Below the pieces are notes generated by a model. That model saw only the letters and a program-made list of their open reading frames with translations, did not search any database and was not told where the DNA came from. A program made the position numbers and the translations under genes. Shown piece after piece: positions 1,549 to 49,346 of a stretch of 55,591 bases of DNA. The stretch comes from a virus, in IMG/VR virus record IMGVR_UViG_3300032237_001108, positions 1 through 55,591 of that record. One strand, written 5' to 3'. Numbering within the stretch: position 1 is the first letter of the stretch; the number at the start of each line of letters is the position of its first letter.

Positions 1549-1558
1549 AGTTTTCCCG
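1549..1558 (-). promoter_or_regulatory. Motif I copy 1 (CGGGAAAACT)
   Basis: Exact 10-mer on the minus strand, 25 nt upstream of the tape-measure GTG at 1523; followed by CAGGCAGTAG. Confidence 0.6.
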
Positions 1559-1561
1559 CCG

Positions 1562-2002
1562 TCACCCCTTCTGCAGCACCGCCACCGGACAGGTCCAGGT
1601 GACCGTGTGCTGCTGCAGGCCAGAGGTCAAGCCATCAATGGTCACGCCTGAGGCGTTGGCCCCCGGCAGGAGCTGCAGGAGGCGGTTCACCACGGCGAGT
1701 TGATTGCAGGCGCCCCCGGCGGTTGGGGGCTCCCACTGGGTCACGGACAGGCGGAAGGTGGGCCGTGTGTCCTGCTCGCCGGTTTCGCAGACGGTGACGG
1801 CGGTTCCCACGAGGTTCCGCCACACCACGACCTCCACCCCTGCGGGCTGCGTGATGGGCTCGATCGCTTCCTTTGGCCAGAAGTGGGCCAGGGCCGGCCG
1901 GGTGGTGCCATCGGCCAGCACGTGGATCCCCAGGAGCGCCAGCAGGGTGGCGTCGGCGGCCAGGCGGTCGAACAGGGCCAGGGTGGTGGTGGGGAGGGGC
2001 AT
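1562..2002 (-). CDS. Virion protein, possibly tail terminator/completion (DUF3168-like)
   Basis: 146 aa. The N-terminus MPLPTTTLALFDRLAADATLLALLG resembles neck/tail-completion proteins. It lies directly upstream of the tape measure, and its start sits in the CTAACCCATG context. Confidence 0.5.
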   Translation of the reverse strand: MPLPTTTLALFDRLAADATLLALLGIHVLADGTTRPALAHFWPKEAIEPITQPAGVEVVVWRNLVGTAVTVCETGEQDTRPTFRLSVTQWEPPTAGGACNQLAVVNRLLQLLPGANASGVTIDGLTSGLQQHTVTWTCPVAVLQKG

Positions 2003-2018
2003 GGGTTAGCGGCGGTGA

Positions 2019-4223
2019 TCAATAGAGTCGTGTGCGTGGGGCGCGATAGCCTTTCCTGCCTTTTCGACTGCTAGGAATGAACCCTTCATTTCGATAGGCA
2101 TAGGCTGCTTGGGCGATTTGAAGCGACCTTTCAGCTTTACGAATACCTCCCGCAGGCGTGTTCCCGCCAATTCGGCTATTAACTATCCTGGCCGCTGTGT
2201 CCTCTCGGCGGCTGGCGCGGGCGTTCCCACGGCCAGCCTTGCTGCTTGCCTCGCGGCTTGCCTGCTGAAACAGATTGACCTTCATTGCGGTTGGCTTAGG
2301 CGGCCTGGCGCCTTTTGCCTTCACCCCCCTCCGCGCCGCCAACACCCCCGGCTTCATCCCCCGCGGCTTGCGCACGGTCCCGGCGGGGCGCTTGGCGCGA
2401 GTCTGAGGGCTGGGCTGTGACGCTTTGGCCGTCAGCCTTGGCGCCTTGAGAGTCAGCCCACTCACGCTATCGGGGCCGGGGTTCTTGACTGTGCTGTAGC
2501 GCCTTTGTTTGCCTGGATTATCCATGGCATACCTGGCGCGAACCGCTGTGGTGATTGAGTTGTATGTGCGCCTGCGGATTGCCGCTGTTCTTGAAGTGCG
2601 GCGGCCACCGTTTGCCGCAACCCGCTGGGCCTCTGCTTTATCCCGCCTCAGCAGGATGTTATCGGGAGAAAGCGCCTTGCCAACACGGCTCCTGCCGCTC
2701 GCCATCCGCGCCTGACGTGTTGCCGCAGGCTTGGGCTTGGCTGCAGAGCGACTGCGAAGGATCGTGCCGGGGCGGGACTTGTTTGCCGCGCCACGCGAAG
2801 CCCATGCAGCGTTGCTCTTTTTTACCGCTGCCTTTCCGGTCTTGTTTCTGTTGCGCATCCAAGTGGCGTATTCCTTCTGAAGTCGCCGATACTCGGCTAC
2901 TTTTTCAGGGCTGGCCTTGGCAATGTTGGCATCCCGTACCTTTGAACCGCCAAAAAAGTTTTTAGGGTTGTACGGTTGCGCTGTGTATGGATACTTTGCC
3001 GCTTCTTTGCTTGCGGCGGCTGACTTTTTCCCGAGGGATCTGTATGTGGCCTGAGGGGTCGCGACCTTGATCCGCTTAGCCGCTGCCTTCTTGGCAGCCG
3101 CCTTAGCTGCCTTCGCGGCGGCCTTTGCCGTGTTGTCCTTGATTTTGGCGATCCGCTTGCGCAGCACCTCGGGGTTGCTGGTTCTGGTCAGCCTTGATTT
3201 CGTCTTGGTCTTGGGGTCAACCTTCCCGGCGTAAATCTGCTGGGCACGCCTGGCGACGGTTGCGCTACGGCTGGCCTTGCTACCTGGGCCGTCCGCCTCC
3301 CGAGCCCACGCGACCAGTTCATTGCGGCCTGCTCGCTGGCTTCTTGCGAGCTGCCTTTGCTGCTGCCTGGCGCGGGGCGAATCAGCAGGGGCCTTGGGCA
3401 CCGCGGCGGAGCGCCTGCGCTCCATGTTCCTAAGCACGGCTGCCGCCGAGTTGGCCATGCGCCTTGATCCTGCGTCGGCCCCTTGAAGATCCCTGTTGCG
3501 GTCGCGGGCGTTGCTTCTGGCGGCGAGGTAGGCCCGCTGTGCCTTGTTTGTGGGCTTCTTGGATGGCCGCTGCGGTTGCTGCTTGGCTGCCCCACCCTTC
3601 TGCGGTTTGTTGTTATCAACAACCTGCTTACGACGCGCCGCCAGCGCCTTCTTGTCCATGGATCCGGTAAGCGGCGAGAATGCAGCCTTTCGCCTTGGCA
3701 TGGAGCCGCTGTAATAGCTCTGTGCCCCCTTGGCGACCGCATAGCCAACCCCGGCCCTTGTCCTGAGCCCGGTCCCTCTCATCGCCGGGCCCTGGAGCCG
3801 CTTCTCGTTCGCCTGCGCTCGTTGCATGGCTCGCTGTTGCTGTCCAGGGCGAGCACGGGAGAGGCCTGCCGCTTTCCGCCCCCCAACCGCCCGCACCGCC
3901 GCCAGACTCCGCGCCACGCTCCCGCGCACACCCCGGCCGCCCTTGGCGATCGTGCCCGAGCGGAACCCCGCCGGCCGCATGGAAGCGATCTGCGTTGCCC
4001 GGCGGTTGCCGCCTGCCGTCTTGAGCCTGCCGCCGCGCACCGTGGCCCCATTCCGCCCGATCCCGCTGATCCGCCCCGCGTTGTCCCGGTTCAGCCGGTT
4101 GCCTGCCCGCATGGCTGCCCGCCGCGTTGCAGGGGTGCTCCGTTTGGGGCCCCCACCACCGGGCGAACTGGCGAACCGGCCGCGGTTGTCGCGGGTGTAG
4201 CTGGTGCGGCGACCTCGGTGCAT
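2019..4223 (-). CDS. Arginine-rich paralog ARP-1 (734 aa), polycationic low-complexity protein
   Basis: Start moved to ATG 4223 (MHRGRRTSYTRDNRGRFASSPGGGGPKRSTPATRRAAMRAGNRLNRDNAGRISGIGRNGATVRGGRLKTAGGN), which aligns with four paralogs. Motif I lies 28 nt upstream. Contains a histone-H1-like tract AKAAAKAAKAAAKKAAAK (about 3070-3135) and the hinge RPAGTVRKPRGMKPGVLAAR (about 2341-2390). Confidence 0.7.
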   Translation of the reverse strand: MHRGRRTSYTRDNRGRFASSPGGGGPKRSTPATRRAAMRAGNRLNRDNAGRISGIGRNGATVRGGRLKTAGGNRRATQIASMRPAGFRSGTIAKGGRGVRGSVARSLAAVRAVGGRKAAGLSRARPGQQQRAMQRAQANEKRLQGPAMRGTGLRTRAGVGYAVAKGAQSYYSGSMPRRKAAFSPLTGSMDKKALAARRKQVVDNNKPQKGGAAKQQPQRPSKKPTNKAQRAYLAARSNARDRNRDLQGADAGSRRMANSAAAVLRNMERRRSAAVPKAPADSPRARQQQRQLARSQRAGRNELVAWAREADGPGSKASRSATVARRAQQIYAGKVDPKTKTKSRLTRTSNPEVLRKRIAKIKDNTAKAAAKAAKAAAKKAAAKRIKVATPQATYRSLGKKSAAASKEAAKYPYTAQPYNPKNFFGGSKVRDANIAKASPEKVAEYRRLQKEYATWMRNRNKTGKAAVKKSNAAWASRGAANKSRPGTILRSRSAAKPKPAATRQARMASGRSRVGKALSPDNILLRRDKAEAQRVAANGGRRTSRTAAIRRRTYNSITTAVRARYAMDNPGKQRRYSTVKNPGPDSVSGLTLKAPRLTAKASQPSPQTRAKRPAGTVRKPRGMKPGVLAARRGVKAKGARPPKPTAMKVNLFQQASREASSKAGRGNARASRREDTAARIVNSRIGGNTPAGGIRKAERSLQIAQAAYAYRNEGFIPSSRKGRKGYRAPRTRLY

Positions 4224-4251: not shown

Positions 4252-4261
4252 AGTTTTCCCG
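4252..4261 (-). promoter_or_regulatory. Motif I copy 2 (CGGGAAAACT)
   Basis: Exact 10-mer, 28 nt upstream of ATG 4223 (ARP-1), in the divergent gap facing nblA. Confidence 0.6.
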
Positions 4262-6361: not shown

Positions 6362-7213
6362 TCAGGCGTTATCGAAGATCGTGTAGGCCTGGCCCAGAAC
6401 CATGAGGCTGGCGCCGTACTTGACCAGAGCACCCGCGTCTCCTTCCTCCTGCTTGGACGAGATACGGCCGTAGCAGAGCTTTTTCTCCGTGGTGCCCCCA
6501 GGTCCGACCCGCAGGTATTTCACGGCCAGCTTCTCGGCGACACCGAACTGGCGCATGACTTCCATGATCTTGTGGTCCACGGACTTGTGAACCGTGAGCC
6601 CCTTGAAGGCAATGCTGCTGTCGGTGTTGATGCCAATGGAGATGGAGGCGCCGCGGGTCACCTGATCGTGAGTGATCACCTTCTCATCGCCCATCTGGGT
6701 TTGCAGGGGTGCGCCGGTGACGTTCATCAGCATGATCGGCTTGCCAGTGCCATCCAAGGGGTAAACGCCCGTGGTGACCGTGCCGGTGTCAACTGCGCTG
6801 GTGATGTTGCTGCCGGTGAGGTCGTAGGTGAAGGTCGTTGTGGTGGGGGCGGCCTTCACGGTGAACGTGCCGTTCACGGCGGTGGCCGTGGTCGCTGCGA
6901 CCGTCACCCTGTCGGCAACGGCCAGGCCATGGGCGGTGCTGGTGGTGATCGTCACCACGTTGGAGGCAAGTGCAACGTTGGTGATCGTCTTGGTGGAGCT
7001 GTTCACCAAGATTTGGAAGGTCGAGGACGATCCGGTGGTGCTCACGCTGCCGGTGCCGCTGATCGCGTTGGCGGTGTTCAGCCAGGCGCTGAGGTTGGCG
7101 CCATTGTTGGCGGCGGCAGTGGCAGCATCCTCCAGAACGACCGATGCGAACCGCATCGGGACGAGGTAGTGCTGAACGTCCAGCGCGGCGGCGTAATCGA
7201 TCGTGGAGGGCAT
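6362..7213 (-). CDS. Virion structural protein (candidate major tail/tube protein with inserted Thr/Ser-rich beta domain)
   Basis: 283 aa. The central ITTSTAHGLAVADRVTVAATTATAVNGTFTVKAAPTTTTFTYDL looks like a phage structural beta-sandwich insert. Has its own motif I copy. Function inferred from position only. Confidence 0.5.
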   Translation of the reverse strand: MPSTIDYAAALDVQHYLVPMRFASVVLEDAATAAANNGANLSAWLNTANAISGTGSVSTTGSSSTFQILVNSSTKTITNVALASNVVTITTSTAHGLAVADRVTVAATTATAVNGTFTVKAAPTTTTFTYDLTGSNITSAVDTGTVTTGVYPLDGTGKPIMLMNVTGAPLQTQMGDEKVITHDQVTRGASISIGINTDSSIAFKGLTVHKSVDHKIMEVMRQFGVAEKLAVKYLRVGPGGTTEKKLCYGRISSKQEEGDAGALVKYGASLMVLGQAYTIFDNA

Positions 7214-7230: not shown

Positions 7231-8474
7231 CTACGCGGAGTTTTCCCGGCTCGCCAGAATCAGCACCGCGCCGGCCTGCGCAGCGGCAAACGCTCGCCCC
7301 TGCACTGCATCAGACGGCACCCGCAGCGCCACGACCTCCCCAGCCTCTGACGCGAACTCACGCACCCGGCCCACGGCGCCGGCCTTGGCCACCAGGAACC
7401 CGCCCCAGTGGCTCGCATCCACCCGGTAGGGGGCCAGCAGGATCGCATCCTCGGCCGCCCAGCAAAGCCGCGGCGGTGGGGTGACGCCTCGGCCCTGGGC
7501 CTCCAGATCGGCCAGCCATGGGCCATCCAACACGAATCCCGGCAGGAGATTTCGCTCCAGCAGTTCCAGCAGGGCGGCGCCGGCCTCACTGGGGGGCCTG
7601 GGGGCTTCCGCCACATCGGCCCAGAAAGTGAAATCGCGCAGGCTGTAGGGCTCTGGTCGGGCTTCGCGGTTGCGGTTGGCCTCGGCGAGGATCAGGGCGA
7701 TCTGCGCGGTGCTCTGTTCCTCCCGGTGAAGCCGCTCCCTTTCGGCCGCGTAACCCGCCGCGAGGGCCTGGAGGACATAGCCGCCGGGGAGCTTGCCGAA
7801 GCGCTCGCGGCTGAACTCGGCGGCGCCGGGCCAGAGTCTGCGGCATTCCCAGTAAGCGCGGGGCCAGTCGGGTCGGTCGCAATCGAGTCGCTGACCTCCT
7901 GCAACTTTCCCAGCTCCTCCTCCAGCGCCTGCATCTGAGCCGCGGGATCCTGCTGGTGCCCGGCGCCAGCCAGCTCCTCTTGCTGCTCAAAGGCGTGCAG
8001 CAGGGTCAGCAGGGGGCCGGGGAGGCGACGGGTCTGCTCATCGGTCCAGGCCGGGCGGATCCGGTTCAGGATCACGGTAACGCCCCGGATCGTGACACGG
8101 TTCGTGATCGCTCTGGCCTCCTCCAGGAAGGGGCCGATGATCCCGGCATGAAGCACCTGAACCGCTTCCTCCTTGGGACTCATGCGGCCGATTTTGGCGC
8201 CCTGCTCTTGGGCCAGCAGACGGGTGAGCAAGCCATAGCAGCGGTGAGCGGTGAACTCATCGGACTGCACAGCCTGATGAAGCTCCACGGCGGCAGCGGT
8301 GATCAGGCGATAGAGCGCGTTCTGAGGATCCACCGCCCGAATCCCTTGCATCTCATCCACCGTCAGGTAGCCCAGCCGGGGCAGAATCATTTCCCCACCA
8401 TTCCACGCGATCGTGGCGGTCGGCTGCTCGGGGGCCTGGGGTGCTGTTTCCCAGGGGAGAAGATCAAAGCTCAC
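7231..8474 (-). CDS. Predicted -1 frameshift fusion product (GT-like)
   Basis: The -1 frame is open from about 7990 to the stop at 7231. It reads as good protein (..RLDCDRPDWPRAYWECRRLWPGAAEFSRERFGKLPGGYVLQALAAGYAAERERLHREEQ..) but has no ATG/GTG/TTG until 7614. It is therefore reachable only by slipping at GGGAAAG. Confidence 0.55.
7239..7248 (-). promoter_or_regulatory. Motif I copy 3 (CGGGAAAACT)
   Basis: Exact 10-mer, 25 nt upstream of ATG 7213. It lies inside the last codons (SRENSA*) of the upstream frameshift product. Confidence 0.6.
7692..8474 (-). CDS. Zero-frame product of the frameshift pair (tail assembly chaperone G-like)
   Basis: 260 aa ORF. The sequence after the slippery site (SDSIATDPTGPALTGNAADSGPAPPSS...) is low complexity, consistent with a non-conserved zero-frame tail. 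Confidence 0.55.
   Translation of the reverse strand: MSFDLLPWETAPQAPEQPTATIAWNGGEMILPRLGYLTVDEMQGIRAVDPQNALYRLITAAAVELHQAVQSDEFTAHRCYGLLTRLLAQEQGAKIGRMSPKEEAVQVLHAGIIGPFLEEARAITNRVTIRGVTVILNRIRPAWTDEQTRRLPGPLLTLLHAFEQQEELAGAGHQQDPAAQMQALEEELGKLQEVSDSIATDPTGPALTGNAADSGPAPPSSAASASASSPAAMSSRPSRRVTRPKGSGFTGRNRAPRRSP
7905..7911 (-). other. -1 slippery heptamer G GGA AAG
   Basis: Minus strand reads CTG GGA AAG TTG in the zero frame, an X XXY YYZ heptamer identical to the lambda G/GT site. Confidence 0.55.
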
Positions 8475-9441: not shown

Positions 9442-11580
9442 TTAGGGCTTTGGCTTGCGGGGCTTGCGGGGCTGCGCTGGCTCCTGCGCCAGTTGAAGCG
9501 CCTGCCGAATGGTGTCCTTGTCCAACAAGTTGCCAGACTTGACGCCTACTCCGTCTATCCCTTGAGATTTGATGAACTTTCGCTTGCTGTAATAGTTAAA
9601 CACCGCTTGCGCTTGCTGCTTTGTAATGCCGCCAAGTTTCTGTATCTGACCTGTCAACGCCTGCTCCGCTTGCACTCTCCTGCTGGCAATGTCCCTAAGC
9701 GCTGAGCGGGTTTCCTGGGGGAGCCTTGAGGGGCTGCGCGTTGGCTTTTGTGCTGCCGTCTTGCGCTTTGGCTTTTGATTTTCGCCGGATGGCTTGCGAT
9801 CGGGGCGAGGCTGAGCGGTTGGAGCCGGGATGCCGGGGCGAGACTGCGGAACGAACCCTTTGGGGAGAACGCTGCTGGTCATGCCCCTCTGCGGGCCGAT
9901 CCGTTTCACCCCACGCAGGAACTCAACTGCTCGCGTTGCGGTCACCTGGCCAATCGCTGCCCGGCCAGCCTGCTTCTTCGTTTCCGGCTGTGCCTTGATG
10001 CTCCGGTTGTAGTTGGCGATTGCCCTGGCCTCGGCTCGCTGCTTTTGCCCTTGCCTTCCGGCACCCTTCCTCCCCGCAATCGCCCCCACCTTCAACCCCT
10101 TCGGCTTCGCCACCGTCCCTGCCGGCCGTGCGGCCTTCATCCGGGGCCCGGCGCCCTTGGGACTGGGCTTGCGGGGGGTAGGCGCGGACTTTGCCAGGTA
10201 GTCAGCGAAATCAAGTCCTGTTTTTGTAAGCGCTGATTGCTCAAAATAGGCTCCATCCGGGCCAACGAGCCGACGCCTGCCATTTTGCACTTGGACTCTG
10301 TAACCCTTTTTGACAAAATCCTCAATAAGCGCTTGGCGAAATACGCCATTGCCATTATTTACCGTGTATTTTTCAAGGGCTGCGTTGGCTTTTGCTCTTT
10401 GCATCGGCGGCATTGAAGCCATGAAGTCTTTTCGTCGCTGCTCGCTGGCAGCGGCTTTAGCGTTAGCTGCCTTCTCTGCAGCGCTAAGCTGCTTTGGTGG
10501 AAACTTTTGCCGCCCTGGCTCTAGCGAATAACTTGGATCGAGTTTGAAGATTTTATCCCTTGCGGCTTTTCTGACTTCCAATGAATTGGAGCCGTTGTAG
10601 ATTATTTTTTCTAAATCAGCTTTTTGGCTTGCAATACTCTTGGGTGCGACTGGCTTTCCTTTTCGTGCAACCACCGTCCCCGCCGCTCTCCGCATAGCAC
10701 CCCCCAGTGCAGACCTGTCCGAGAACGACCGCGCCTTGCGGACCCTCACGTTGTCGGCCTTGCCGCTCAGGAGGTTGCCTTGGGCGACCGCTGCGGTCCT
10801 GATCCGTGCCGATCCCTTGGTTCCGGTCTTGACCCCATCGCCTGCGTATCGGCCGCCGTTGTACGACTTGCTGGCTGTGCTCTTTGTTGCCGCAGCCCGA
10901 TTCAGGTAAGCCTTGCCAGCTTCGGCCCTGGTCCTGAACGTGACGCGGCCACCGCCCTGCTTGGCCGGGTCATAACTGCCGGCCCTCATGCGGGCGTTTT
11001 GCGCCGTGCTGCGGACCCCGAAACGCTGCTTTGCGGTCTGCGCCTCTGCCCGCTGAAACTCGCTGAGCGTGGCCCGAGTGCCGACCTGGCTGGATGCCAG
11101 CGTTCTGTCCGTCTTCGGCTTGTAGCCCGCCGCCGCCGACCTTCCCCGCTTGTAGTTCTTGGGCGCCGCTGCCACCGGCTTGGCCGTGGTCACGCGCCCC
11201 CGCAGTTGGGACACGGCGCCACCCTTCCGAATCACCCCCGCCGGCCCCTTTCCAGTCATCCGCACCGTGGAGGCAGCCCGCACCTTCCCGAGCCGGTTCG
11301 CGCCCCTGGTGACCGCCCCTCTCTGCGCCCGCAGGCTCAGCGTGCCCTGCAAGCTGCGATCAGCCGGGTTCTTGGCGGCCAACTTGGCGCGGCTGCGGCG
11401 GAGGCTGCTGTGAGCCCCCAGCGTGCCGCCGGTGACCGTGGGCCGGGCCTTCCGCATGGCCGCCCGCCTGGTGGCCGGGGTGCTGCGCTTCGGGGGGCCA
11501 CCGCCGGGAGTTGAGGCAAAGCGCCCGCTGTTGTCGCGCACGTAGTTGGAGCGCCTGCCTCTACTGCCGCCGCGGGCCAT
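9442..11580 (-). CDS. Arginine-rich paralog ARP-2 (712 aa)
   Basis: MARGGSRGRRSNYVRDNSGRFASTPGGGPPKRSTPATRRAAMRK... Hinge RPAGTVAKPKGLKVGA at 10081-10128. AT-richer globular islands near 10200-10640 and 9480-9700. Confidence 0.7.
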   Translation of the reverse strand: MARGGSRGRRSNYVRDNSGRFASTPGGGPPKRSTPATRRAAMRKARPTVTGGTLGAHSSLRRSRAKLAAKNPADRSLQGTLSLRAQRGAVTRGANRLGKVRAASTVRMTGKGPAGVIRKGGAVSQLRGRVTTAKPVAAAPKNYKRGRSAAAGYKPKTDRTLASSQVGTRATLSEFQRAEAQTAKQRFGVRSTAQNARMRAGSYDPAKQGGGRVTFRTRAEAGKAYLNRAAATKSTASKSYNGGRYAGDGVKTGTKGSARIRTAAVAQGNLLSGKADNVRVRKARSFSDRSALGGAMRRAAGTVVARKGKPVAPKSIASQKADLEKIIYNGSNSLEVRKAARDKIFKLDPSYSLEPGRQKFPPKQLSAAEKAANAKAAASEQRRKDFMASMPPMQRAKANAALEKYTVNNGNGVFRQALIEDFVKKGYRVQVQNGRRRLVGPDGAYFEQSALTKTGLDFADYLAKSAPTPRKPSPKGAGPRMKAARPAGTVAKPKGLKVGAIAGRKGAGRQGQKQRAEARAIANYNRSIKAQPETKKQAGRAAIGQVTATRAVEFLRGVKRIGPQRGMTSSVLPKGFVPQSRPGIPAPTAQPRPDRKPSGENQKPKRKTAAQKPTRSPSRLPQETRSALRDIASRRVQAEQALTGQIQKLGGITKQQAQAVFNYYSKRKFIKSQGIDGVGVKSGNLLDKDTIRQALQLAQEPAQPRKPRKPKP

Positions 11581-11601
11581 GGGATCGGGGTCTACTGCCG
11601 C

Positions 11602-11611
11602 AGTTTTCCCG
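11602..11611 (-). promoter_or_regulatory. Motif I copy 4 (CGGGAAAACT)
   Basis: Exact 10-mer, 21 nt upstream of ATG 11580 (ARP-2); followed by GCGGCAGTAG. Confidence 0.6.
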
Positions 11612-11622
11612 CGTCCCCCTGC

Positions 11623-12138
11623 TCAGCTCCGCAACAGCATCCCCACGCCGCCGGCTGCACCCTGCGGGGCCAGGCGCTGCACGTTGAGGGCTTGGGCAAT
11701 GCGTGCGGTCAGCAGCTCGATCCGCTCATCCCGCTGCCCCTGCGCCGTGGCCCTGGCGCCGCCGCCGAAGCGATACCGGGCCTTGAGCAGGGAGGTGTCC
11801 CAAGAGAGCTTGCCGGCCTGGCTGAGCTGCTGGGCCCGTGTGGGGGAGGTGCCGGGGATCGGGCCGTCGTATTCCTCGGCATTGCCCAGGTGGGCGGTGC
11901 CTGCATCGATCTCATCGGCCTGGGTCGTCTCCAGGGTCACGATCTCGTCCACCCACCCCTGAACCTGCGTCACGGTGGAGGAGCTCAGCCCTGCAACCGT
12001 GTTCATCTGCTGGATCAGCTCCGTCAGGCTGCCATCGGTCGCGGGCCAGCCGATGTAGGTGCGGATCAGGTCGCGATCGTTGCGGGTGCTGGTGGCCGTG
12101 GGGCGCCAGAGCGGGTCAAGGGTTGGCAGGGTGGCCAT
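11623..12138 (-). CDS. Hypothetical virion-module protein (171 aa)
   Basis: ORF with its own motif I copy and a CC-ATG-GCC start context. No family recognised. Confidence 0.55.
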   Translation of the reverse strand: MATLPTLDPLWRPTATSTRNDRDLIRTYIGWPATDGSLTELIQQMNTVAGLSSSTVTQVQGWVDEIVTLETTQADEIDAGTAHLGNAEEYDGPIPGTSPTRAQQLSQAGKLSWDTSLLKARYRFGGGARATAQGQRDERIELLTARIAQALNVQRLAPQGAAGGVGMLLRS

Positions 12139-12152
12139 GGATCAGGACGCGC

Positions 12153-12401
12153 TCAGGCTGCCGTGAGTTTTCCCGCAGCCGGATCTTCCAGGCCCACGCG
12201 GGGGCCGTGGAGGCTGCCGAACCAGAACCGGCCCTGCGGGTCAAGGCTATTGCTCAGCAGCCGCAGGATCTGCTCTCCCTCGTGGTCATCGGTGACGGTG
12301 GCCAGCATCCGCAGGCCCTGCTGAGCGGCGGCAGCATCGCGGCGGAGGGCAGCGACACTGAGGGCTTGGAACAGGCGAAGGGTGGGGCTGCGGGTGGGCA
12401 T
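12153..12401 (-). CDS. Hypothetical 82-aa protein
   Basis: Start moved to ATG 12401 (MPTRSPTLRLFQALS...). The track start at 12434 is a TTG. Confidence 0.45.
   Translation of the reverse strand: MPTRSPTLRLFQALSVAALRRDAAAAQQGLRMLATVTDDHEGEQILRLLSNSLDPQGRFWFGSLHGPRVGLEDPAAGKLTAA
12166..12175 (-). promoter_or_regulatory. Motif I copy 5 (CGGGAAAACT)
   Basis: Exact 10-mer, 27 nt upstream of ATG 12138. It overlaps the last codons (AAGKLTAA*) of the upstream ORF. Confidence 0.6.
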
Positions 12402-12461
12402 GGGTGGCTGAAGGGGTGGATCAGGAGTGGTCAAGGGATGGTCAAGGGGTGGAGGGGTGGA

Positions 12462-13952
12462 TCACTTGACGGGCTTGTAGCGCTTGAGCCTCTTGGGCTT
12501 GCCCATCAGGGAGAGCTGGCTCATGCCAGTGTCTACGGCGCGGATGCGGGGGTTTTTCCGCATGATGCCAAACCCCAAAACGCCGGTTCTGACCCTGTTC
12601 AACGTGATCTCCCGCCGCCGCCGCTGCGACGCCCTCGCCTGGCTGCGAGTCCTGGCCACGGTTGTGGACACCTTCGCTTCCCGCTTCGGCTTGGAGATGG
12701 TCCCTTTGATTCTTGCGGCGCGAGCAAAACCCTTGCGCGAGGTGCCGTATCCCAATTCCCGGCGACTCCAGGCGCCGCCCCTTATTGCGTCCCTAGACAA
12801 TTTCGGCCTCTGCGCTTTCGCTTTTGCGGCTGCTGATTGATTGCCTTCTTGAATCCTGTCGCGTGCGGTCATTGCGTCCCTGCGGGCCTTGATCCGCGCC
12901 TTGTCCTGCCCGAGGTCATTAAACCGGCCGGGCTTGTTCCTGTTCGGCTTTTGCGTGCTGTATCGCGGCGGCTTTGTCATAGCCTTGCGCACAGAAGCAA
13001 AGGCTTCGGGCTGGCTCATCTGATTAAGCATCCCTACGCTGCCCCCTTCTTTCCTTGCCAGGAAAGACTTTGCCCTTGTTCCCACTTGGATAGCATTAAG
13101 GCGCTTGACGCCTGTTTTTTGTTCTGCGCCACGAACTACATTGTTGAGCCGGCCAATAACTCGTGACACCCTGCCATCGTCTACCCTCGCCTTTCTTTTT
13201 CCACGTGCTGGCTTTGCTGCAGTGCGGGCGGCTTTGGCCTGTTTGGGGGCGGCGAGCTTTGCGGTGGTCGCCTTCCGCCGCCCACGGGAAACGGTGCCAG
13301 GGATTGCGGGGGCCTTGGCCTTGCGCGAGCTTCCACCGATCGGTGACCCGATAGCGGTTCTGGCCCTGAGTGCTTTTATTGTTTTCTTTGTCCTTGCCGT
13401 GTCGATGTATTGAATGTCGCTTGTGCCCATCCGAAAGGCTCGCCTCATAAAGGCAAGCGTTGCAATTCTATTGTTTACTCCAAACTTTTGCTGTATGGCT
13501 TGAATGCCCTCTTTATAGCCTTTTGCAATTCTCCCGTTTAGCAGCAACGTGGGATCGTTGAACGTGTCACGTGCTCGTTGCGCCGCAGATCGCTGCGGCG
13601 CTGACAGCTTGACCGACTTTTGAGGCTTAACCGCCCCCTTCCTAGCCTTCCCCATCGCCCCCGGATCCCGCCGCACCCGGCCGCGCATGGTCCCCGCCAG
13701 CGGCGCCCGCTTCATCCGATCCAGCACCGCCCCCCGCTGATTCCCGGCGGCGGTCCTGAGGCGGCCACCCCGAGCTGTGGCGCCGTTCTTGCCCACGCCG
13801 GTGATCTTGCCGCTGTTGTCCCTGGTGATCCGGTTCGTGCCCCGCTGCGCTCGCCGGGCGGCGGGCTTGGCCTTGGCCGTGGTGGTGCCAGTCGAGGCGA
13901 AACGTCCCTTGCCATCACGGACATAGGTGCGGCGGGCGGATCTTCGGGCCAT
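12462..13952 (-). CDS. Arginine-rich paralog ARP-3 (496 aa)
   Basis: MARRSARRTYVRDGKGRFASTG...NRITRDNSGKITGVGKNGATARGGRLRTAAGNQRG. AT-richer island near 13380-13620. Confidence 0.7.
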   Translation of the reverse strand: MARRSARRTYVRDGKGRFASTGTTTAKAKPAARRAQRGTNRITRDNSGKITGVGKNGATARGGRLRTAAGNQRGAVLDRMKRAPLAGTMRGRVRRDPGAMGKARKGAVKPQKSVKLSAPQRSAAQRARDTFNDPTLLLNGRIAKGYKEGIQAIQQKFGVNNRIATLAFMRRAFRMGTSDIQYIDTARTKKTIKALRARTAIGSPIGGSSRKAKAPAIPGTVSRGRRKATTAKLAAPKQAKAARTAAKPARGKRKARVDDGRVSRVIGRLNNVVRGAEQKTGVKRLNAIQVGTRAKSFLARKEGGSVGMLNQMSQPEAFASVRKAMTKPPRYSTQKPNRNKPGRFNDLGQDKARIKARRDAMTARDRIQEGNQSAAAKAKAQRPKLSRDAIRGGAWSRRELGYGTSRKGFARAARIKGTISKPKREAKVSTTVARTRSQARASQRRRREITLNRVRTGVLGFGIMRKNPRIRAVDTGMSQLSLMGKPKRLKRYKPVK

Positions 13953-13972
13953 GGCGCTGACGGTGCTACCGC

Positions 13973-13982
13973 AGTTTTCCCG
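13973..13982 (-). promoter_or_regulatory. Motif I copy 6 (CGGGAAAACT)
   Basis: Exact 10-mer immediately after the TGA of ARP-4 and 20 nt upstream of ATG 13952 (ARP-3). Confidence 0.6.
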
Positions 13983-15455: not shown

Positions 15456-15476
15456 TGGAAACGCTGCTACTGCAGG

Positions 15477-15486
15477 AGTTTTCCCG
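15477..15486 (-). promoter_or_regulatory. Motif I copy 7 (CGGGAAAACT)
   Basis: Exact 10-mer, 21 nt upstream of ATG 15455 (ARP-4); followed by CCTGCAGTAG. Confidence 0.6.
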
Positions 15487-15497
15487 GCTTGCCTTGG

Positions 15498-16652: not shown

Positions 16653-16693
16653 GCTTTTGGCAGCGATTCAGGCTGGTTGCCCTAGTTTTCCCG

Positions 16694-16703: not shown

Positions 16704-16719
16704 TCCAGTATTGGCGCCC

Positions 16720-17787: not shown

Positions 17788-17790
17788 GGG

Positions 17791-19266: not shown

Positions 19267-19287
19267 GGCTACGGCAATCGTTGCCGC

Positions 19288-36791: not shown

Positions 36792-36976
36792 TTTTCCTTG
36801 TTGTTGGGGTTCTTATTGGATGCGTTGCACGTAAAAAGGTATTTGATGAAACGTGGCACGCTGGATATATAGAAGGTGTCCGCTATGGCAACCATGAAAA
36901 CGTTTTCCTAAGGCGGCGCATTATTCATCTAGAAGCTCAGGCCCGTCAACTGAAACGCACTGGGGTAAAGGCATGA
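36779..36976 (+). CDS. Small membrane protein (65 aa), AT-richer
   Basis: MQSVIFLVVGVLIGCVARKK has an N-terminal transmembrane segment. ATGA overlap with the sigma gene start. Confidence 0.45.
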   Translation: MQSVIFLVVGVLIGCVARKKVFDETWHAGYIEGVRYGNHENVFLRRRIIHLEAQARQLKRTGVKA

Positions 36977-40373: not shown

Positions 40374-41675
40374 CTACAGCCGATCCACAGCCACCATCTG
40401 TCCCCGTTGGCCCACTCGCATCTCCTGGAGCACGGCGCCGAACACGGCCCGCAGTTCTGCCGGCCCAGCCAGCCTGAACAGTTCGGGATCGCTCAGCCGC
40501 TCGCGGATCGCCTCCACGTCAGGGGTGACCCGCGGGCGGTTTGCCATGGCGGCGATCTCCGCCCGCAGCGCATCACAGGCCGGCGCAATGGCTGGGTTTC
40601 GCCTGGCCATCGCCTCCAGCGACTCCAAGTCGCGGCGCTTGGCGCTAATCGCTGGATCCTCCGCCTTAGGGGCTGCCACTGCTGCCGCCAGGCGATCGGC
40701 TGCCGCAATGCAAGCCTCAATCACCGCCGGCATGGCCCGATCTTCTCGGATGCCCGCCTTCTGCGAGCACAACCGATGACGGCAGCGCCACCAAGCCGTT
40801 TTTCCTGAGGTGTTGCGCCGCAGGGTGTGCCCGCAACTGGAGCACCGCAGTGATCCGGCGAGGGCATGTCGCACCTCCGTGGCGCGACCCAGGAAGCGAT
40901 TAGCGGGCCGCCGCAGGTATTGCGCCAGCTCCTGCCAGTCCTGCTCACCGATCAGCGCCGTGTGCTGGTTGTAGTGGATCTCCCCCCACCGCCGGCTCCA
41001 AGCCTTTCCGCTGCTCTGGTCCACCAGATGGCCAATGTGCCCTCGGATGACGGGATTGCAGAACCACGCCATCAGGCTGCTGGTTGCCGGGGTCCAACTG
41101 CACCAAGCCGGCAAGTCCTTTGACACCGCCGAAAAGCTGCCTAGCTCCTGCAGCAGCGCGAGCACCTTCAGCGCCTGAGGCCAGTGCTCAGGGTGCGGCT
41201 CCAGCCGGTGGTCTGCTCCGCCTCGGTAGCCGAACGGCTTGCGCCGGCGCAAATGGCGCCCTTGGGCACGGTACTGCTCGAACTGGCGCCGCAGCCTCAT
41301 GCTCAGCATTCGGCTCTCCACCTCGGCCATGGTCGTGAGGATGCGAGCCTGCATGAACCCCTGCGGGGAGGCCGATTCGATGATGCCGCCATCAATGGCC
41401 GTGACCTTCACGCCCTGGATTCCGCACAAGGCCAGCAGCTCATCGGCAAAGGCCGCATTTCGGCCCAGTCGATCAGCGCGGGTGATCACCAGCTCTTTCA
41501 CGCAACCGGCTTGCACCTTAAGAATCACCTCAGCCAGGCCGGGGCGGTCGTCAACGCGACCGCTCTCTAGCTCCTCCACGATCCGATCACAACCGGCCGC
41601 CTTGAGCCGTGCCACTTGCGCCGGCAGGCTGTCGGCCTGCTCCTCCTTGCTGACGCGGGCGTAACCAAGGCGCAT
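40374..41675 (-). CDS. int: Large serine recombinase (integrase)
   Basis: MRLGYARVSKEEQADSLPAQVARLKAAGCDRIVEELESGRVDDRPGLAEVI....LVITRADRLGRN is a resolvase-type catalytic domain. It is followed by a recombinase domain and a Cys-rich zinc-ribbon (CSSCGH...WWRCRHRLC). Start set to ATG 41675. Confidence 0.9.
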   Translation of the reverse strand: MRLGYARVSKEEQADSLPAQVARLKAAGCDRIVEELESGRVDDRPGLAEVILKVQAGCVKELVITRADRLGRNAAFADELLALCGIQGVKVTAIDGGIIESASPQGFMQARILTTMAEVESRMLSMRLRRQFEQYRAQGRHLRRRKPFGYRGGADHRLEPHPEHWPQALKVLALLQELGSFSAVSKDLPAWCSWTPATSSLMAWFCNPVIRGHIGHLVDQSSGKAWSRRWGEIHYNQHTALIGEQDWQELAQYLRRPANRFLGRATEVRHALAGSLRCSSCGHTLRRNTSGKTAWWRCRHRLCSQKAGIREDRAMPAVIEACIAAADRLAAAVAAPKAEDPAISAKRRDLESLEAMARRNPAIAPACDALRAEIAAMANRPRVTPDVEAIRERLSDPELFRLAGPAELRAVFGAVLQEMRVGQRGQMVAVDRL

Positions 41676-41696
41676 AGGCTGCGGTAGCAGTGGTTT

Positions 41697-41746
41697 GGAC
41701 CCTAGCGCTTTGCAGTCCTTCTCTTTCAATAGGGTCCGCAAAGCGC
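41697..41746. repeat. Interleaved complementary repeats immediately upstream of int
   Basis: GGACCCTA (41697-41704) and GCGCTTTGC (41705-41713), a 16-nt spacer, then TAGGGTCC (41730-41737) and GCAAAGCGC (41738-41746). The order is A B ... A' B'. Confidence 0.5.
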
Positions 41747-41770
41747 TGCCCAGATGCTGCAAGGGGCTTC

Positions 41771-41971
41771 CTAGGGCTGTCGCTCCTGCAGGGCCACACC
41801 TAGAGCCACATTTGCGGCACCGGTCCAGGTCGTGATGGCGGTTGCCAGGGGGGTTTCGCAGTTGCCGTGATTGCTCAGCAAGCAGACAACCCAGCCAGCG
41901 GTGCCCAGGCTTGCCGCAGCCAACAGGCAGAGGCCCGAGAACAGCAGGCAGCGGCCCAGGAAGCGGGTCAC
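41771..41971 (-). CDS. Small hydrophobic protein (66 aa)
   Basis: MTRFLGRCLLFSGLCLLAAASLGTAGWVVCLL. ATGA overlap with the upstream gene. Confidence 0.45.
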   Translation of the reverse strand: MTRFLGRCLLFSGLCLLAAASLGTAGWVVCLLSNHGNCETPLATAITTWTGAANVALGVALQERQP

Positions 41972-42225
41972 CTTGCCTCCAGCCGCGTCACCCGGCGATC
42001 AATTCCGGTGATTGCCCCTTCGGCTTTCTCCAGCCGATCCTCTGCCGCTAGCTGGCGGCTAAGGATCGCCTTTTGATTCTCAAGTACCAGATCAAGTTGG
42101 CGCGGCACCGTGACACCAATGTAGACAATCCCGGCCACCGCCAACAGGATTAGACCGCTGGCCACTTGTGGGGTTACCTCACTCCAGAACTGAGCCTTTT
42201 GCTGGTGCTGGTCGCCGTTGTCCAT
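41968..42225 (-). CDS. Single-pass membrane protein with coiled-coil tail (85 aa)
   Basis: The transmembrane segment VASGLILLAVAGIVYIGV is followed by LDLVLENQKAILSRQLAAEDRLEKAEGAITGIDRRVTRLEAR. Has its own motif I copy. Confidence 0.5.
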   Translation of the reverse strand: MDNGDQHQQKAQFWSEVTPQVASGLILLAVAGIVYIGVTVPRQLDLVLENQKAILSRQLAAEDRLEKAEGAITGIDRRVTRLEAR

Positions 42226-42245: not shown

Positions 42246-42255
42246 AGTTTTCCCG
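42246..42255 (-). promoter_or_regulatory. Motif I copy 11 (CGGGAAAACT)
   Basis: Exact 10-mer, 20 nt upstream of ATG 42225. Confidence 0.6.
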
Positions 42256-44267: not shown

Positions 44268-44558
44268 TCAGGAATAAGTGAGCGAAGCCCGGCTGGTCCA
44301 GGCGCCGGAGGCGGTTCTGGTGGTCATCAGCACGCCAGCAGCAGAGAAAATCGTGCGAGTGATTGCCCAGCCGGTGGAGGACTCGGCGGTGGCAGCCGGA
44401 GCCTTGCCGACGTAGATGGTGTTGGAGGTAGAGGTGGAATCGATGCGGACGGATTGGGAGGCGCCGCCACCAGAAGGCCCCGGCGGTCCAGGAATTGCGA
44501 CACGCACCACCGCCGGAGCGGCAGGAACGGTCAACCTGACAACAGCAGGGCAGGTCAT
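44268..44558 (-). CDS. Hypothetical fibre-associated protein (96 aa) with short collagen-like GPPGPSGG
   Basis: VAIPGPPGPSGGGASQS...TIYVGKA...WAITR. 4-nt overlap with the upstream gene. Confidence 0.5.
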   Translation of the reverse strand: MTCPAVVRLTVPAAPAVVRVAIPGPPGPSGGGASQSVRIDSTSTSNTIYVGKAPAATAESSTGWAITRTIFSAAGVLMTTRTASGAWTSRASLTYS

Positions 44559-44914
44559 GCGTCCCTCCTGCTGCTGCGCAGGGTCACCGTTACCGATCCG
44601 GTCGCTAGGAAGTTGTCATCAGCCTGGGTAGCGCCAGGCGACACCATGATGCAGTCATAGCGATAGGCTCCGCCCACCTTCAGGTTGTTGACGATCGCTT
44701 CGGGAAGAATCAGCCGGACCCTTCCCTGTGATGGCGTGGCTTCCACCGTCACGGGGTAAATCGTTCGGCCCTTCTCATCGCTGACCGTGGCATTGACATC
44801 CCAGTTCAGGAACTGCCAGGCCGTGGTTTGAGCGGTGTCGCTGAACAGCTCAAAAATCTTCAGGGCATCAAGCCCTTGCTCCATCTCCCAGGTTTCGTCT
44901 TCGACCCAGGCCAT
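44555..44914 (-). CDS. Hypothetical virion protein (119 aa)
   Basis: ORF with its own motif I copy. Confidence 0.5.
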   Translation of the reverse strand: MAWVEDETWEMEQGLDALKIFELFSDTAQTTAWQFLNWDVNATVSDEKGRTIYPVTVEATPSQGRVRLILPEAIVNNLKVGGAYRYDCIMVSPGATQADDNFLATGSVTVTLRSSRRDA

Positions 44915-44923: not shown

Positions 44924-45160
44924 TCACTGCTGCAGTTTTCCCGGCTCGGGCTCGTAGGCCTCGTTCACCGCGGGAGTGCTCAGGTCGTCAGCCTGGAAGG
45001 TGCCGCGATTGGTGCGTGCTCGGCGCCGGGGCCTGGCTTGGGACTCCTCTGTTGTCACATCAGGCGCAGCCTCCTCGGGCTCCCGCTCGCCGCTGATCAG
45101 GGCTTGCTGCTGCTCGTGGGTCATGCCCGCGGAGAAGCTGAAAAGAGCAATGTGTGCCAT
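44924..45160 (-). CDS. Hypothetical 78-aa protein
   Basis: Start at the internal ATG 45160 (MAHIALFSFSAGMTHEQQQ...), with GGAG 10 nt upstream. The track ORF start at 45325 would overlap the gene at 45219..45701. Confidence 0.4.
   Translation of the reverse strand: MAHIALFSFSAGMTHEQQQALISGEREPEEAAPDVTTEESQARPRRRARTNRGTFQADDLSTPAVNEAYEPEPGKLQQ
44934..44943 (-). promoter_or_regulatory. Motif I copy 12 (CGGGAAAACT)
   Basis: Exact 10-mer, 19 nt upstream of ATG 44914. It overlaps the last codons (PGKLQQ*) of the 78-aa ORF. Confidence 0.6.
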
Positions 45161-46706: not shown

Positions 46707-46873
46707 GGGTCAAAAATGCGGAGGGGGTGAATGGTGGTCTCAATCCAGACAGGGGCGGAGCATCGGCCGGGCATCGCGCCTTGCGTCTGCGGTTGTCCTT
46801 GCTGGTGGTGGTCAGTGCCCTGGCATCGCGCCCGGTGCGGGTGACCCGCAGCATCGCGCTCTGGGTCACCCGG
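46707..46873 (-). promoter_or_regulatory. 167-nt structured leader between motif I copy 13 and the capsid start
   Basis: A perfect 9-bp hairpin, GGGTGACCC (46871-46863) with GGGTCACCC (46847-46839), encloses a 15-nt loop. GCGCGATGC occurs three times (complements at 46851-46859, 46823-46831, 46771-46779). Confidence 0.5.
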
Positions 46874-46883
46874 AGTTTTCCCG
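46874..46883 (-). promoter_or_regulatory. Motif I copy 13 (CGGGAAAACT)
   Basis: Exact 10-mer, 4 nt after the scaffold stop and 167 nt upstream of the capsid GTG at 46706. Confidence 0.6.
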
Positions 46884-46887: not shown

Positions 46888-47709
46888 TCAGCCGTTGCCG
46901 TAGTGCTCGCTGAGGAACGCGCTGCCGGAGGTGCCGCGGGCCTGCTCCACCGATCGGCCCTGAACACCACGAACACCGCGAGCGCCCACGAAACCACCGG
47001 AGCCCTCCCCGCCCTTGGCGCGGAAGAAGGTGCCTACCACTGCAGAGTTGTCGGCCTGCTGGTTCAACCATGCCACCGGGTCCACGTCCACCCCTTCGGC
47101 GGACTTCACCCGATCACCGTCGTTATCCACCACGTAGAGCTTTCCATTGGTCTCGTCCACCCGGAGGTGGCGCTTGCCTTGGAACTCCATCCATGCGTCA
47201 AAGAACGACAGGCCGGAGGCGTCGGCACCATCGCGGCCATCGGCAGCCGAGAACACCCCGCGGGCCATGGTCTTGACCTCCAGGGCGATCCGGCGGGCCT
47301 TCTCTGCCTCGGCGGTGGTCGTGGCCTTGCGCACCGCCTCGTTGGCCTTGCTCTCGATCCGCTGCCGCTCGGCGGCGGTGAGCTGTTCGCGCTCGGCTAG
47401 GCGGCGCTCCAACTCAATCGCCTTCTCTTGGGCCTGCCGGTAGGCGTCAGGGCTCAGATCCTTGACGGTGGCGAGCTGCGTCTCCATCTGCGCCAAGCGG
47501 CGCTCCAGCGCCTTGCGGGTTTCGCGCTCCTGCCGCAGGGCCTTTTGTCCGGCCTCCCCTAGGCTCGGATCGTCGGGGTCCAGCTCCTCGCCGGTGCCGC
47601 CACCGCCGCCGCCATCGCCCGCGCCTGCGGGGTCGGGCTCCACGGTGGGCCATGGCCGCAGCCATTCGCCAGCAGTCCCGAGGAGCTGATCAATCAGGGT
47701 CCGTTTCAT
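46888..47709 (-). CDS. Scaffolding protein
   Basis: 273 aa. It has an acidic Gly-rich N-terminus and a long charged coiled coil (QKALRQERETRKALERRLAQMETQLATVKDL...ELERRLAEREQLTAAERQRIESKANEAVRKA). It sits directly upstream of the capsid gene. Confidence 0.6.
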   Translation of the reverse strand: MKRTLIDQLLGTAGEWLRPWPTVEPDPAGAGDGGGGGGTGEELDPDDPSLGEAGQKALRQERETRKALERRLAQMETQLATVKDLSPDAYRQAQEKAIELERRLAEREQLTAAERQRIESKANEAVRKATTTAEAEKARRIALEVKTMARGVFSAADGRDGADASGLSFFDAWMEFQGKRHLRVDETNGKLYVVDNDGDRVKSAEGVDVDPVAWLNQQADNSAVVGTFFRAKGGEGSGGFVGARGVRGVQGRSVEQARGTSGSAFLSEHYGNG

Positions 47710-47750
47710 GCGTTGCCGGGAAATCGCTCCGCCGGTGCAAGTTGCCCCGC

Positions 47751-47760
47751 AGTTTTCCCG
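47751..47760 (-). promoter_or_regulatory. Motif I copy 14 (CGGGAAAACT)
   Basis: Exact 10-mer, 41 nt upstream of ATG 47709 (scaffold). Confidence 0.6.
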
Positions 47761-47903: not shown

Positions 47904-48869
47904 TTAAAAGCCAAGCCATGGTGTTCCTATAATTGTAACGGGGGTCGCGTCATTGATAGCCGCGTTAAAAATAACTGTGCCTAGATAATCTGGCAACGCT
48001 TCAACCTGGGAAAGGTTGTACTGAAAGGTATCGCTAACCTTGGGCGGGTAGTCGTAAACAGAAACATCCGCGCCTTGGCTTTCAACCACGATCCCAGGGT
48101 AGAAACTTTGAAATGCGGGATCACTTTCGGTCACCACTGCGCCAGGATTCGCCAGCACCTTAGAGTTATTGATTTCAAACGGCCAGCTCAAAAACGGATT
48201 TCCAGTAGATGCCCCGGCCTTCATCCATCGAGTGTCTGCGATAAAAGTGCCGTAAATGACTTCTCCTGCATAATCGCCGCCGCCGCCTGCAACAAGTGAA
48301 ACCAGCGGAGGCTGTGAAAAGTTGTCGTCACCAAAAGTATGAACTCTTAGGCTAGACGCAAAGCCTCCGTGATTGCCAAACACTTCTCGCCAGCCCACAA
48401 CTGTGCTGCCAATAACAACTGGTACAACGTCTGCTTTTAGTTGATATACTAACTTGCTAGAGTTAAGCATGTCGTATTTTTTTTGATTGACGTTGCCAAA
48501 GTCTTCCCATATTGTCCAAGCGTCCACCGCCTCGTAAGTGTTAAACCCTATTCCCCCAGAAATGGGCTCAAAAGCCTTTATGACCGTCAGAGTTCTTTGG
48601 CACGTAGCGGAATAGGTAATCTTTGCTCCCGCCCTCCTTTTCCTCCAAATCCGCCACTTCAACGGATCCCCCGTCTCCAGCAACCCTCCGGTCGTCCGAT
48701 CAGGTGTCACCGGCCGCTGTCGCAGCGCGGCAGCGTGGCGGGCCTTAACCCTGGCCTTGATCTTCTCGCTCAGCACCCGGCTGTCCAGCGCCTCTCGATT
48801 GGCGTACTGCGCCGCCCTGGCGGACTCAATCAGTCGCGCCGGAATGTTGAGGTTGACGTTACCGGGCAT
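47904..48869 (-). CDS. Tail-associated protein (321 aa) with AT-richer C-terminal two thirds
   Basis: ORF overlapping the upstream stop. The region 47904 to about 48560 is visibly AT-richer than its flanks. No family recognised. Confidence 0.6.
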   Translation of the reverse strand: MPGNVNLNIPARLIESARAAQYANREALDSRVLSEKIKARVKARHAAALRQRPVTPDRTTGGLLETGDPLKWRIWRKRRAGAKITYSATCQRTLTVIKAFEPISGGIGFNTYEAVDAWTIWEDFGNVNQKKYDMLNSSKLVYQLKADVVPVVIGSTVVGWREVFGNHGGFASSLRVHTFGDDNFSQPPLVSLVAGGGGDYAGEVIYGTFIADTRWMKAGASTGNPFLSWPFEINNSKVLANPGAVVTESDPAFQSFYPGIVVESQGADVSVYDYPPKVSDTFQYNLSQVEALPDYLGTVIFNAAINDATPVTIIGTPWLGF

Positions 48870-49315
48870 CAGGCGGTCACCAAGAACCCATCAGTGAACA
48901 GGAGCACCGAATAGGAGCGGGGCTCGCCAGGGCTGAGCACAACATTGGGGTTTTCCGTGAGCACGAACGAAACGCCAGTGTTCCAGGTCGTCGTGCTGCC
49001 TGAGATGGTGCCAATTACAAGGTAGGCGGTGTTCCAGTTCAGGCCGGCGCCGCCGGAGGATGCGGCATATTCGCAAAGCTGAGCCGCCACTTCAAAGCGC
49101 TCTGTGGTGCTGTTGTAGCTGCCCGAGGGGATTGTCCACTCAAAGCGGGCGTAGCCGTTGCCGCTCAGTTCTGCCGCGTCCCAAGCGGCGGTATTGCTGG
49201 TCACCCCCAGCGATCCAGAGTTGACCGCCAGGCATAGCCGGGCCCTCTTGCCGGCGTAGTTGCTGGCGAACAGGCGCCCCGCTTCGTAGGGGGTCTGGGT
49301 CATTGCAGCGGCCAT
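48869..49315 (-). CDS. Hypothetical tail protein (148 aa)
   Basis: ORF with its own motif I copy, downstream of the tail-tip gene. Confidence 0.55.
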   Translation of the reverse strand: MAAAMTQTPYEAGRLFASNYAGKRARLCLAVNSGSLGVTSNTAAWDAAELSGNGYARFEWTIPSGSYNSTTERFEVAAQLCEYAASSGGAGLNWNTAYLVIGTISGSTTTWNTGVSFVLTENPNVVLSPGEPRSYSVLLFTDGFLVTA

Positions 49316-49336
49316 GGGCTCTCAGTCTGTGCTGCT

Positions 49337-49346
49337 AGTTTTCCCG
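49337..49346 (-). promoter_or_regulatory. Motif I copy 15 (CGGGAAAACT)
   Basis: Exact 10-mer, 3 nt after the tail-tip stop and 21 nt upstream of ATG 49315. Confidence 0.6.

Follow-up and report, generated by a model that had tools for sequence, protein, structure and literature searches.

A repeated 10-mer ahead of late genes as a candidate promoter for a SigF-like phage sigma factor in an uncultured cyanosiphovirus

Here we describe a sequence of ten nucleotides (nt), CGGGAAAACT, which is repeated ahead of the late genes in IMG/VR record IMGVR_UViG_3300032237_001108, the complete, circularly assembled genome of an uncultured phage from a metagenome. The full 55,591-base stretch analysed is called the window in the following. 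Judged from sequence comparisons, CGGGAAAACT is probably a promoter of some kind. The specific reading that we favour, with a probability of about 0.65, is a late promoter whose reader is a diverged SigF-like sigma factor encoded by the phage itself next to its terminase gene. Late promoters that depend on a phage-encoded sigma factor are a familiar kind of phage control; in this phage group such a promoter is previously undescribed.

CGGGAAAACT occurs in the window in 15 exact copies, all of them on the minus strand, compared to 0.07 copies on average and at most 1 in dinucleotide-preserving shuffles, which bears out the count given in the initial annotation of this DNA. Each exact copy is located upstream of a late gene. 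Recomputed from the end of the motif to the start codon, the distance amounts to 25 nt for both the tape measure gene (copy at 1549-1558) and the portal gene (20844-20853), which start with GTG, and to 28, 21, 20, 21 and 21 nt from the ATG of five genes for Arg-rich proteins (2019-4223, 9442-11580, 12462-13952, 13983-15455 and 17791-19266; copies at 4252-4261, 11602-11611, 13973-13982, 15477-15486 and 19288-19297, respectively). The copy at 16684-16693 lies 31 nt 5' of the ATG of an exonuclease/metallophosphoesterase-like gene (15498-16652). Genes for proteins of 283 (6362-7213), 171 (11623-12138), 85 (41968-42225), 119 (44555-44914) and 148 amino acids (48869-49315) are preceded by the copies at 7239-7248, 12166-12175, 42246-42255, 44934-44943 and 49337-49346, which are 25, 27, 20, 19 and 21 nt away from the respective ATG. 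The longest distances are found for a 273-amino-acid gene in scaffold position (46888-47709; copy at 47751-47760, 41 nt 5' of the ATG) and for the major capsid gene, where the copy at 46874-46883 forms the 5' edge of a conserved leader of 167 nt. Fourteen of the coordinates and fourteen of the distances given in the initial annotation are reproduced; its position 16694 is a typographical error for 16684, and the distance ahead of the metallophosphoesterase-like gene is 31 nt instead of 41 nt. The genes that it had listed as served by the motif agree with our annotation scans, and the terminase gene, dcd and the early genes are indeed found to lack it.

If one mismatch is allowed, five extra matches to CGGGAAAACT appear, at 33215 (+), 19128 (-), 34219 (-), 27856 (+) and 28475 (+). 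The first of these, which had been noted before as a 9/10 copy on the plus strand, is real: it reads TGGGAAAACT (33215-33224) with an intact core GGAAAACT and is located 16 or 22 nt 5' of the ATG of a gene for a small basic protein, with the gene for an AbrB-like regulator downstream. The match at 28475 was rejected as a motif copy, since it is accounted for by an array of origin-like iterons at 28464-28560.

For the anatomy of the element, copies from the window and from related viral contigs were pooled, which yields 76 non-redundant sites. Hereby, no upstream position exceeds 0.31 bit, in line with the earlier statement that the upstream flanks are not conserved and that a -35-like box is missing. 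The downstream flank is weakly conserved, with G (62%), C or A, G, G (80%), C, A (61%, position +6 after the motif) and a purine (91%, position +7). A mini-hairpin formed by the 3' end of the motif and the GCAG flank was considered and rejected because covariation is absent (39 paired cells observed compared to 37.9 expected). The start codon follows at a distance of 15-32 nt in 71% and of 91-194 nt in 21% of the copies. Late genes separated from the upstream gene by 5 nt or less never carry the motif, and nearly all of those with a gap of at least 30 nt do. No Shine-Dalgarno sequence, and no GGAG, was seen ahead of any late start. Sigma-70-consensus promoters and intrinsic terminators are found in the late region at chance level only, and scans of the window for Rfam families and for tRNAs returned no match. 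At the translationally coupled genes, the junction TAA-CCC-ATG is recurrent (minus-strand starts 17787, 9438 and 2002), and start codons often lie within CCATGG.

The motif can be aligned with a known cyanobacterial promoter. In the SigF promoter of pilA1 from Synechocystis PCC 6803, GGG occupies positions -15 to -13 and AAG positions -11 to -9, with a pseudo-hexamer TAAGTT at -12 to -7 (PMC2532724). The -12 region (GGTAA) is the most important part of this promoter, which also needs a -32 element, TAGGC (PMC2532724). Aligned without gaps from -15 to -7, the pilA1 sequence GGGTAAGTT and the motif GGGAAAACT are identical at 6 of 9 positions, including A-11 and T-7. The alignment thus places the A of the motif at -11, its T at -7 and the 91% purine at +1. 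Hence, the phage element shares with SigF promoters a GGG-(T/A)AA core in the same register and a putative cognate sigma factor of the SigF/SigB/SigG branch. It differs from them in that neither the -32 TAGGC nor an AG-rich upstream tract is conserved at the 76 sites, in that the sigma factor is phage-encoded and scores far under the family cut-offs, and in that the element is an invariant 10-mer with about 15 copies in one genome.

The copy ahead of the portal gene lies within the 3' tail of the sigma-like open reading frame (ORF), where it is read as the tripeptide G-K-T. This tripeptide is conserved in homologues, in contrast to the neighbouring residues, which points to selection acting on the nucleotides of this copy. 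In one relative (L041), the copy orthologous to that at 44934-44943 follows a canonical intrinsic terminator, GGGGAGGC-TTCG-GCCTCCCC and then TTTTT, that ends 18 nt upstream of the motif; the downstream gene therefore needs a promoter of its own. Among 85 sites, this is the one clear case of a terminator preceding the motif.

The leader of the capsid gene (46707-46873, minus strand) is non-coding and conserved from the motif onward, not upstream of it. It contains a hairpin that begins 3 nt past the motif and shows compensatory changes, as well as three copies of GCGCGATGC. The start codon of the capsid gene is conserved as GTG, with ATG in one relative; a small ORF 19 nt after the motif copy was discarded, as its frame is not maintained in relatives. 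The exact onset of conservation at the motif, together with the variable length of the leaders, indicates that the motif marks the 5' edge of the leader and holds no fixed position relative to the ribosome. Conserved blocks are also present in the leader of the gene in scaffold position (47710-47750), and both leaders may be cis-regulatory RNAs.

When viral contigs were searched for the motif plus GCAG, 119 loci were retrieved, the majority as single chance matches. Three to eight copies are present in 22 of these loci, with a common orientation except in one locus, and almost all of the multi-copy loci show 65-93% nucleotide identity to the window where aligned. The exact 10-mer is kept at G+C contents of 43% (L135), 54% (L008, L028) and 69%, and in L008, L028 and L135 it is again found ahead of the portal gene and other late genes. 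It is also present in L136, a contig binned with a cyanobacterial metagenome-assembled genome. In the more distant L134 (ENA k141_1204958, 11000-19650), the sigma of which is 45% identical, the late motif takes a variant form, GGGAAAACC or GGAAAACT and then AGGGGCAGCAG; this locus would be useful for testing co-variation of sigma and promoter.

S-CBS2 and P-SS2, two cultured relatives, contain no exact repeated word outside coding repeats (in S-CBS2, collagen-like coding repeats only). In a scan of their upstream regions, GGCATCCTA, GGAATACTA, GGAACCCTA and similar words are enriched, and a degenerate form of the motif, GGhAnnCT, is found at the same distance from the starts as in the window. 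Hereby, 25 of 88 matches to GG[ACT]ANNCT in S-CBS2 and 15 of 38 in P-SS2 fall 10-40 nt ahead of annotated starts, compared to 3.4 and 1.6 expected, respectively; for most of these start-proximal matches, the distance to the start is 19-29 nt. Where T occupies position -12 (GGTATACT, GGTAGACT, GGTAAACT), the sequence is located ahead of early genes and the sigma genes and resembles an ordinary -10 box, and the structural (late) genes have A or C at this position. Such a graded series is the behaviour of a -10 element and is not usual for RNA motifs.

The candidate reader of the motif is encoded at 20787-21767 on the minus strand, between the genes for the terminase large subunit and the portal. 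The start codon of this diverged group 3 (SigF-like) sigma gene is uncertain, and the tail of its product past residue ~295 is probably non-functional. The Pfam region 2 match of the ORF is marginal, and its best NCBIfam matches, SigF (NF005644, 2e-12) and SigB/F/G, are both under the curated cut-offs. PDB searches by sequence and profile retrieved SigF (1l0o_C, 4e-7, profile) and S. aureus SigB. In line with these matches, the AlphaFold model (mean pLDDT 70, helical core >85) matches sigma factors only, over ~240 columns, and contains equivalents of regions 2, 3 and 4. Several of 60 homologues are annotated as specialised sigma subunits, and at loci with both terminase and portal genes the sigma gene lies in between in 16 of 16 cases, S-CBS2 and P-SS2 included. 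The P-SS2 gene at this position, ORF003, was called a group 3 sigma, for which the authors proposed a specific regulon; they also noted the rarity of group 3 sigmas in marine Prochlorococcus (PMC2784084). The window thus shares with P-SS2 (ORF003) and S-CBS2 (gp077) a homologous group 3 sigma gene at the same position next to terL; what differs is that GGhAnnCT is here proposed as the promoter, frozen as CGGGAAAACT in the lineage of the window. Throughout the lineages with the exact motif, the segment IRGAM..WLRDKGHSSGV(R/K)FPDRWRD, which is equivalent to sigma regions 2.4-3.0, is nearly unchanged, even at 47-48% overall identity, and L134, S-CBS2 and P-SS2 differ from them in this segment. 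A co-variation of sigma segment and motif is, by these comparisons, suggestive only.

The genome encodes a second sigma factor, a group-2-like (cyanobacterial RpoD-like) protein at 36973-37818 on the plus strand, which was rejected as the reader of the motif. It is missing in L121, L122 and L124, which are the closest relatives with the motif and in which the space from RecT to the next gene is too short, and the allele present in L123 and L125 is only 39% identical; this gene is an accessory cassette. The earlier proposal that a phage sigma reads the motif is thus plausible for the terminase-adjacent sigma and fails for the group-2-like one.

In the model that we favour, CGGGAAAACT would represent the -16 to -7 segment of a single-element late promoter, in which positions -15 to -13 are G, -11 is A and -7 is T. 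The predicted transcription start is the conserved purine ~7 nt downstream of this T. Host core RNA polymerase carrying the diverged SigF-like (group 3) sigma would be the reader. Since no motif copy serves the sigma gene itself, which directly follows the terminase gene, this gene should be expressed first, together with dcd and terminase. The sigma made early would then activate ~15 internal promoters across the late region, each of which would head a block of translationally coupled genes. The resulting leaders would be short, ~13-20 nt, and devoid of a Shine-Dalgarno sequence, with the exception of the capsid gene and its long structured leader. Hereby, we infer from sequence comparison both that transcription starts at the motif and that the terminase-adjacent sigma is its reader. 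The phage-specific, -35-independent, single-element late promoter put forward in the initial annotation is the best-supported explanation, given the match to the SigF promoter, the SigF-like gene as part of the core genome, the -10-like degenerate forms and the terminator in L041.

A number of points weigh against this model. The case for a promoter is comparative throughout. The -32 element needed by the published SigF promoter is not conserved here, yet the sigma model has a region-4-like domain. All 10 bases are invariant in every copy, a strictness that is unusual among sigma-type -10 elements. Moreover, L028 retains the exact motif with a sigma that is only 39% identical overall, which is why the co-variation of sigma and motif is no more than suggestive. 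In addition, the hairpin of the capsid leader starts at +3 after the motif and shows a compensatory change in its +6 pair. Its 5' arm is thus located partly upstream of a transcription start at +7, so that read-through RNA or an earlier start is required. Finally, the tight spacing of 19-28 nt, the missing Shine-Dalgarno sequences and the restriction of the motif to uncoupled genes fit a translational role equally well.

Such a role would make the motif an RNA-level element within a long polycistronic late transcript, located 5' of each uncoupled cistron and acting either as a Shine-Dalgarno-independent signal for ribosome loading or re-initiation or as an endoribonuclease site. We regard this explanation as unlikely, although the dependence of the motif on the gap to the upstream gene, the lack of Shine-Dalgarno sequences ahead of late starts and the 71% of copies at 15-32 nt from the start codon would all be accounted for. 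The exact invariance of the motif suits a nucleic-acid or nuclease reader, and the capsid-leader hairpin 3 nt past the motif is compatible with a 5' end generated there. However, the 21% of copies at 91-194 nt, which are separated from the start by conserved structured leaders, rule out a ribosome positioning element that works at a fixed distance. The potential hairpin that involves the motif lacks covariation, Rfam is empty, and no candidate nuclease or RNA-binding reader was found. Furthermore, there is a gradual transition from the degenerate forms of S-CBS2 and P-SS2 to ordinary -10 boxes (TATACT), and one copy has an intrinsic terminator directly upstream. The RNA-level alternative considered in the initial annotation is thus weakened by the long conserved leaders that start at the motif, while the uncoupled-gene rule and the missing Shine-Dalgarno sequences leave room for it. 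There is also a small chance that the 10-mer does double duty, as a promoter whose Shine-Dalgarno-less leaders of ~13-20 nt signal 5'-end-dependent ribosome loading, or that it is purely an RNA processing or re-initiation site. If so, translation would start independently of Shine-Dalgarno sequences at internal cistrons in cyanophages, and the restriction of the motif to translationally uncoupled genes would be explained.

Alternatively, the motif might be a promoter with another reader, namely a host sigma (e.g. host SigF), the group-2-like phage sigma, or host holoenzyme redirected by an early protein such as the AbrB-like regulator (33496-33930), a possibility that we consider improbable. 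The resemblance of the motif to a host-type SigF -12 region and the persistence of the exact motif in L028 despite its diverged sigma are consistent with this idea. Group 3 sigmas are, however, reported to be rare in marine picocyanobacteria (PMC2784084), and a phage with hosts spanning 43-69% G+C cannot depend on one. The group-2-like sigma is, as stated above, missing in three of the relatives and strongly diverged in two. The AbrB-like regulator is 72-83% conserved in relatives and encoded just downstream of the only plus-strand copy, but we know of no AbrB-type protein that reads exact asymmetric 10-mers.

A further comparison concerns the stoperators of cluster A mycobacteriophages, which are asymmetric repressor-binding sites in early and late operons and match the operator of the early lytic promoter. 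Stoperator-type sites that block late-gene read-through in the lysogen would be compatible with a temperate siphovirus that encodes a serine integrase (40374-41762) and winged-helix regulators, and the motif copies resemble stoperators in being asymmetric, intergenic and co-oriented with transcription. Nevertheless, such a function is very improbable. In contrast to stoperators, exact copies are found only ahead of late genes, with none in the early operons, and they lie close to the starts, near which they stay even in long gaps. Moreover, they show a -10-like register with a conserved purine at +7 and bear no relation to the operator-like repeats in the switch region, which are different and palindromic (GTTGCGC..GCAAC). 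The motif is also invariant, whereas the winged-helix regulators of the relatives are only 36-70% identical.

The favoured reading, a late promoter for the terminase-adjacent sigma, has its closest functional counterpart in the late promoters of T4 (TATAAATA), which depend on gp55, gp33 and the sliding clamp. Common to both are a single -10-type element without a -35 box, many copies inside late clusters and, as proposed here, a phage-encoded reader of the sigma family, as is gp55. The two differ in sequence (CGGGAAAACT compared to TATAAATA) and in the sigma, as the protein described here comprises equivalents of regions 2, 3 and 4 in place of the minimal form of gp55; gp55, gp33 and the clamp did not turn up in Pfam or PHROG scans. 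The likeness to T4 gp55 drawn in the initial annotation is hence functional only, as there is neither a gp55 homologue nor TATAAATA. The start-associated sequences of cluster K mycobacteriophages lie a few bases from the start and contain the ribosome-binding site. They are likewise short exact repeats on one strand, upstream of a subset of starts; the motif differs from them by its distance of 19-41 nt and 167 nt from the start and by the lack of a Shine-Dalgarno sequence. A literature search for the 10-mer returned unrelated primers only. Literature searches on cyanosiphovirus late promoters yielded no description, and no promoter for the group 3 sigma of P-SS2 and S-CBS2 was found in the papers searched.

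CGGGAAAACT would thus be the first concrete promoter candidate put forward for the group 3 sigma of cyanosiphoviruses like P-SS2 and S-CBS2, with a consensus GGhAnnCT ~20-25 nt ahead of late starts. In a widespread lineage of 43-69% G+C, most members of which are uncultured, this consensus is frozen as CGGGAAAACT. With this consensus, late transcription units could be annotated in metagenomic cyanophage genomes and the timing of gene expression could be predicted. Sigma and promoter might also be usable as an orthogonal expression pair in cyanobacteria. In addition, a SigF-type sigma may function without a -32 element.

With respect to the genome that carries the motif, the ends of the window (1-123 and 55469-55591) form an exact direct repeat of 123 nt. 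The tape measure ORF continues in frame through the circular junction, over which one relative also aligns; the window is therefore complete and circularly assembled. As the repeat is the overlap of the circular assembly, the true genome length is ~55,468 bp. The portal is 33-36% identical to the portals of the cyanosiphoviruses S-CBS2, P-SS2 and S-CRES, and the genome encodes, besides the serine integrase, RecT, RusA, the winged-helix regulators and a pentapeptide-repeat protein, also a cyanobacterial-type AbrB-like regulator and the cyanobacterial RpoD-like sigma. These features identify the phage, with ~65% G+C, as a temperate cyanosiphovirus and a relative of S-CBS2 and P-SS2. Its late genes, namely those for terminase, portal, MuF, the five Arg-rich paralogues, tape measure and capsid, are all located on the minus strand. 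Megablast of 25 kb against GenBank phages gave no match, an integrase search of GTDB genomes for a prophage or host returned two unrelated recombinases only, and PDB sequence searches with three conserved early proteins of unknown function gave no match.

The five Arg-rich paralogues are large and very basic, are located amid the head-morphogenesis genes and have a common N-terminus, M.RG.RRTSYVRDNRGRFAS...GTNRLTRDNSGRI..GKNGATARGGRLRT. The protein encoded at 13983-15455 has a C-terminal HEMGH zincin-like motif. Profile scans of these proteins gave zero Pfam or PHROG matches; they may be packaged or ejected proteins. Within a winged-helix ORF (28049-29245), three iterons TTGTCCC-N4-CGGGACA occur at intervals of 20-22 nt ahead of an AT-rich stretch (28464-28560, plus strand). 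This array looks like a replication origin of the lambda-O style. The GTTGCGC..GCAAC palindromes are repeated where the leftward and rightward gene clusters diverge (27280-27345) and are likely the operators of the lysogeny switch. Just upstream of the start of the pentapeptide-repeat gene at 25622, the coding strand contains a C11 A8 homopolymer tract and then TAGACT (~25626-25644, minus strand), which might be prone to slippage or represent a promoter-proximal feature.

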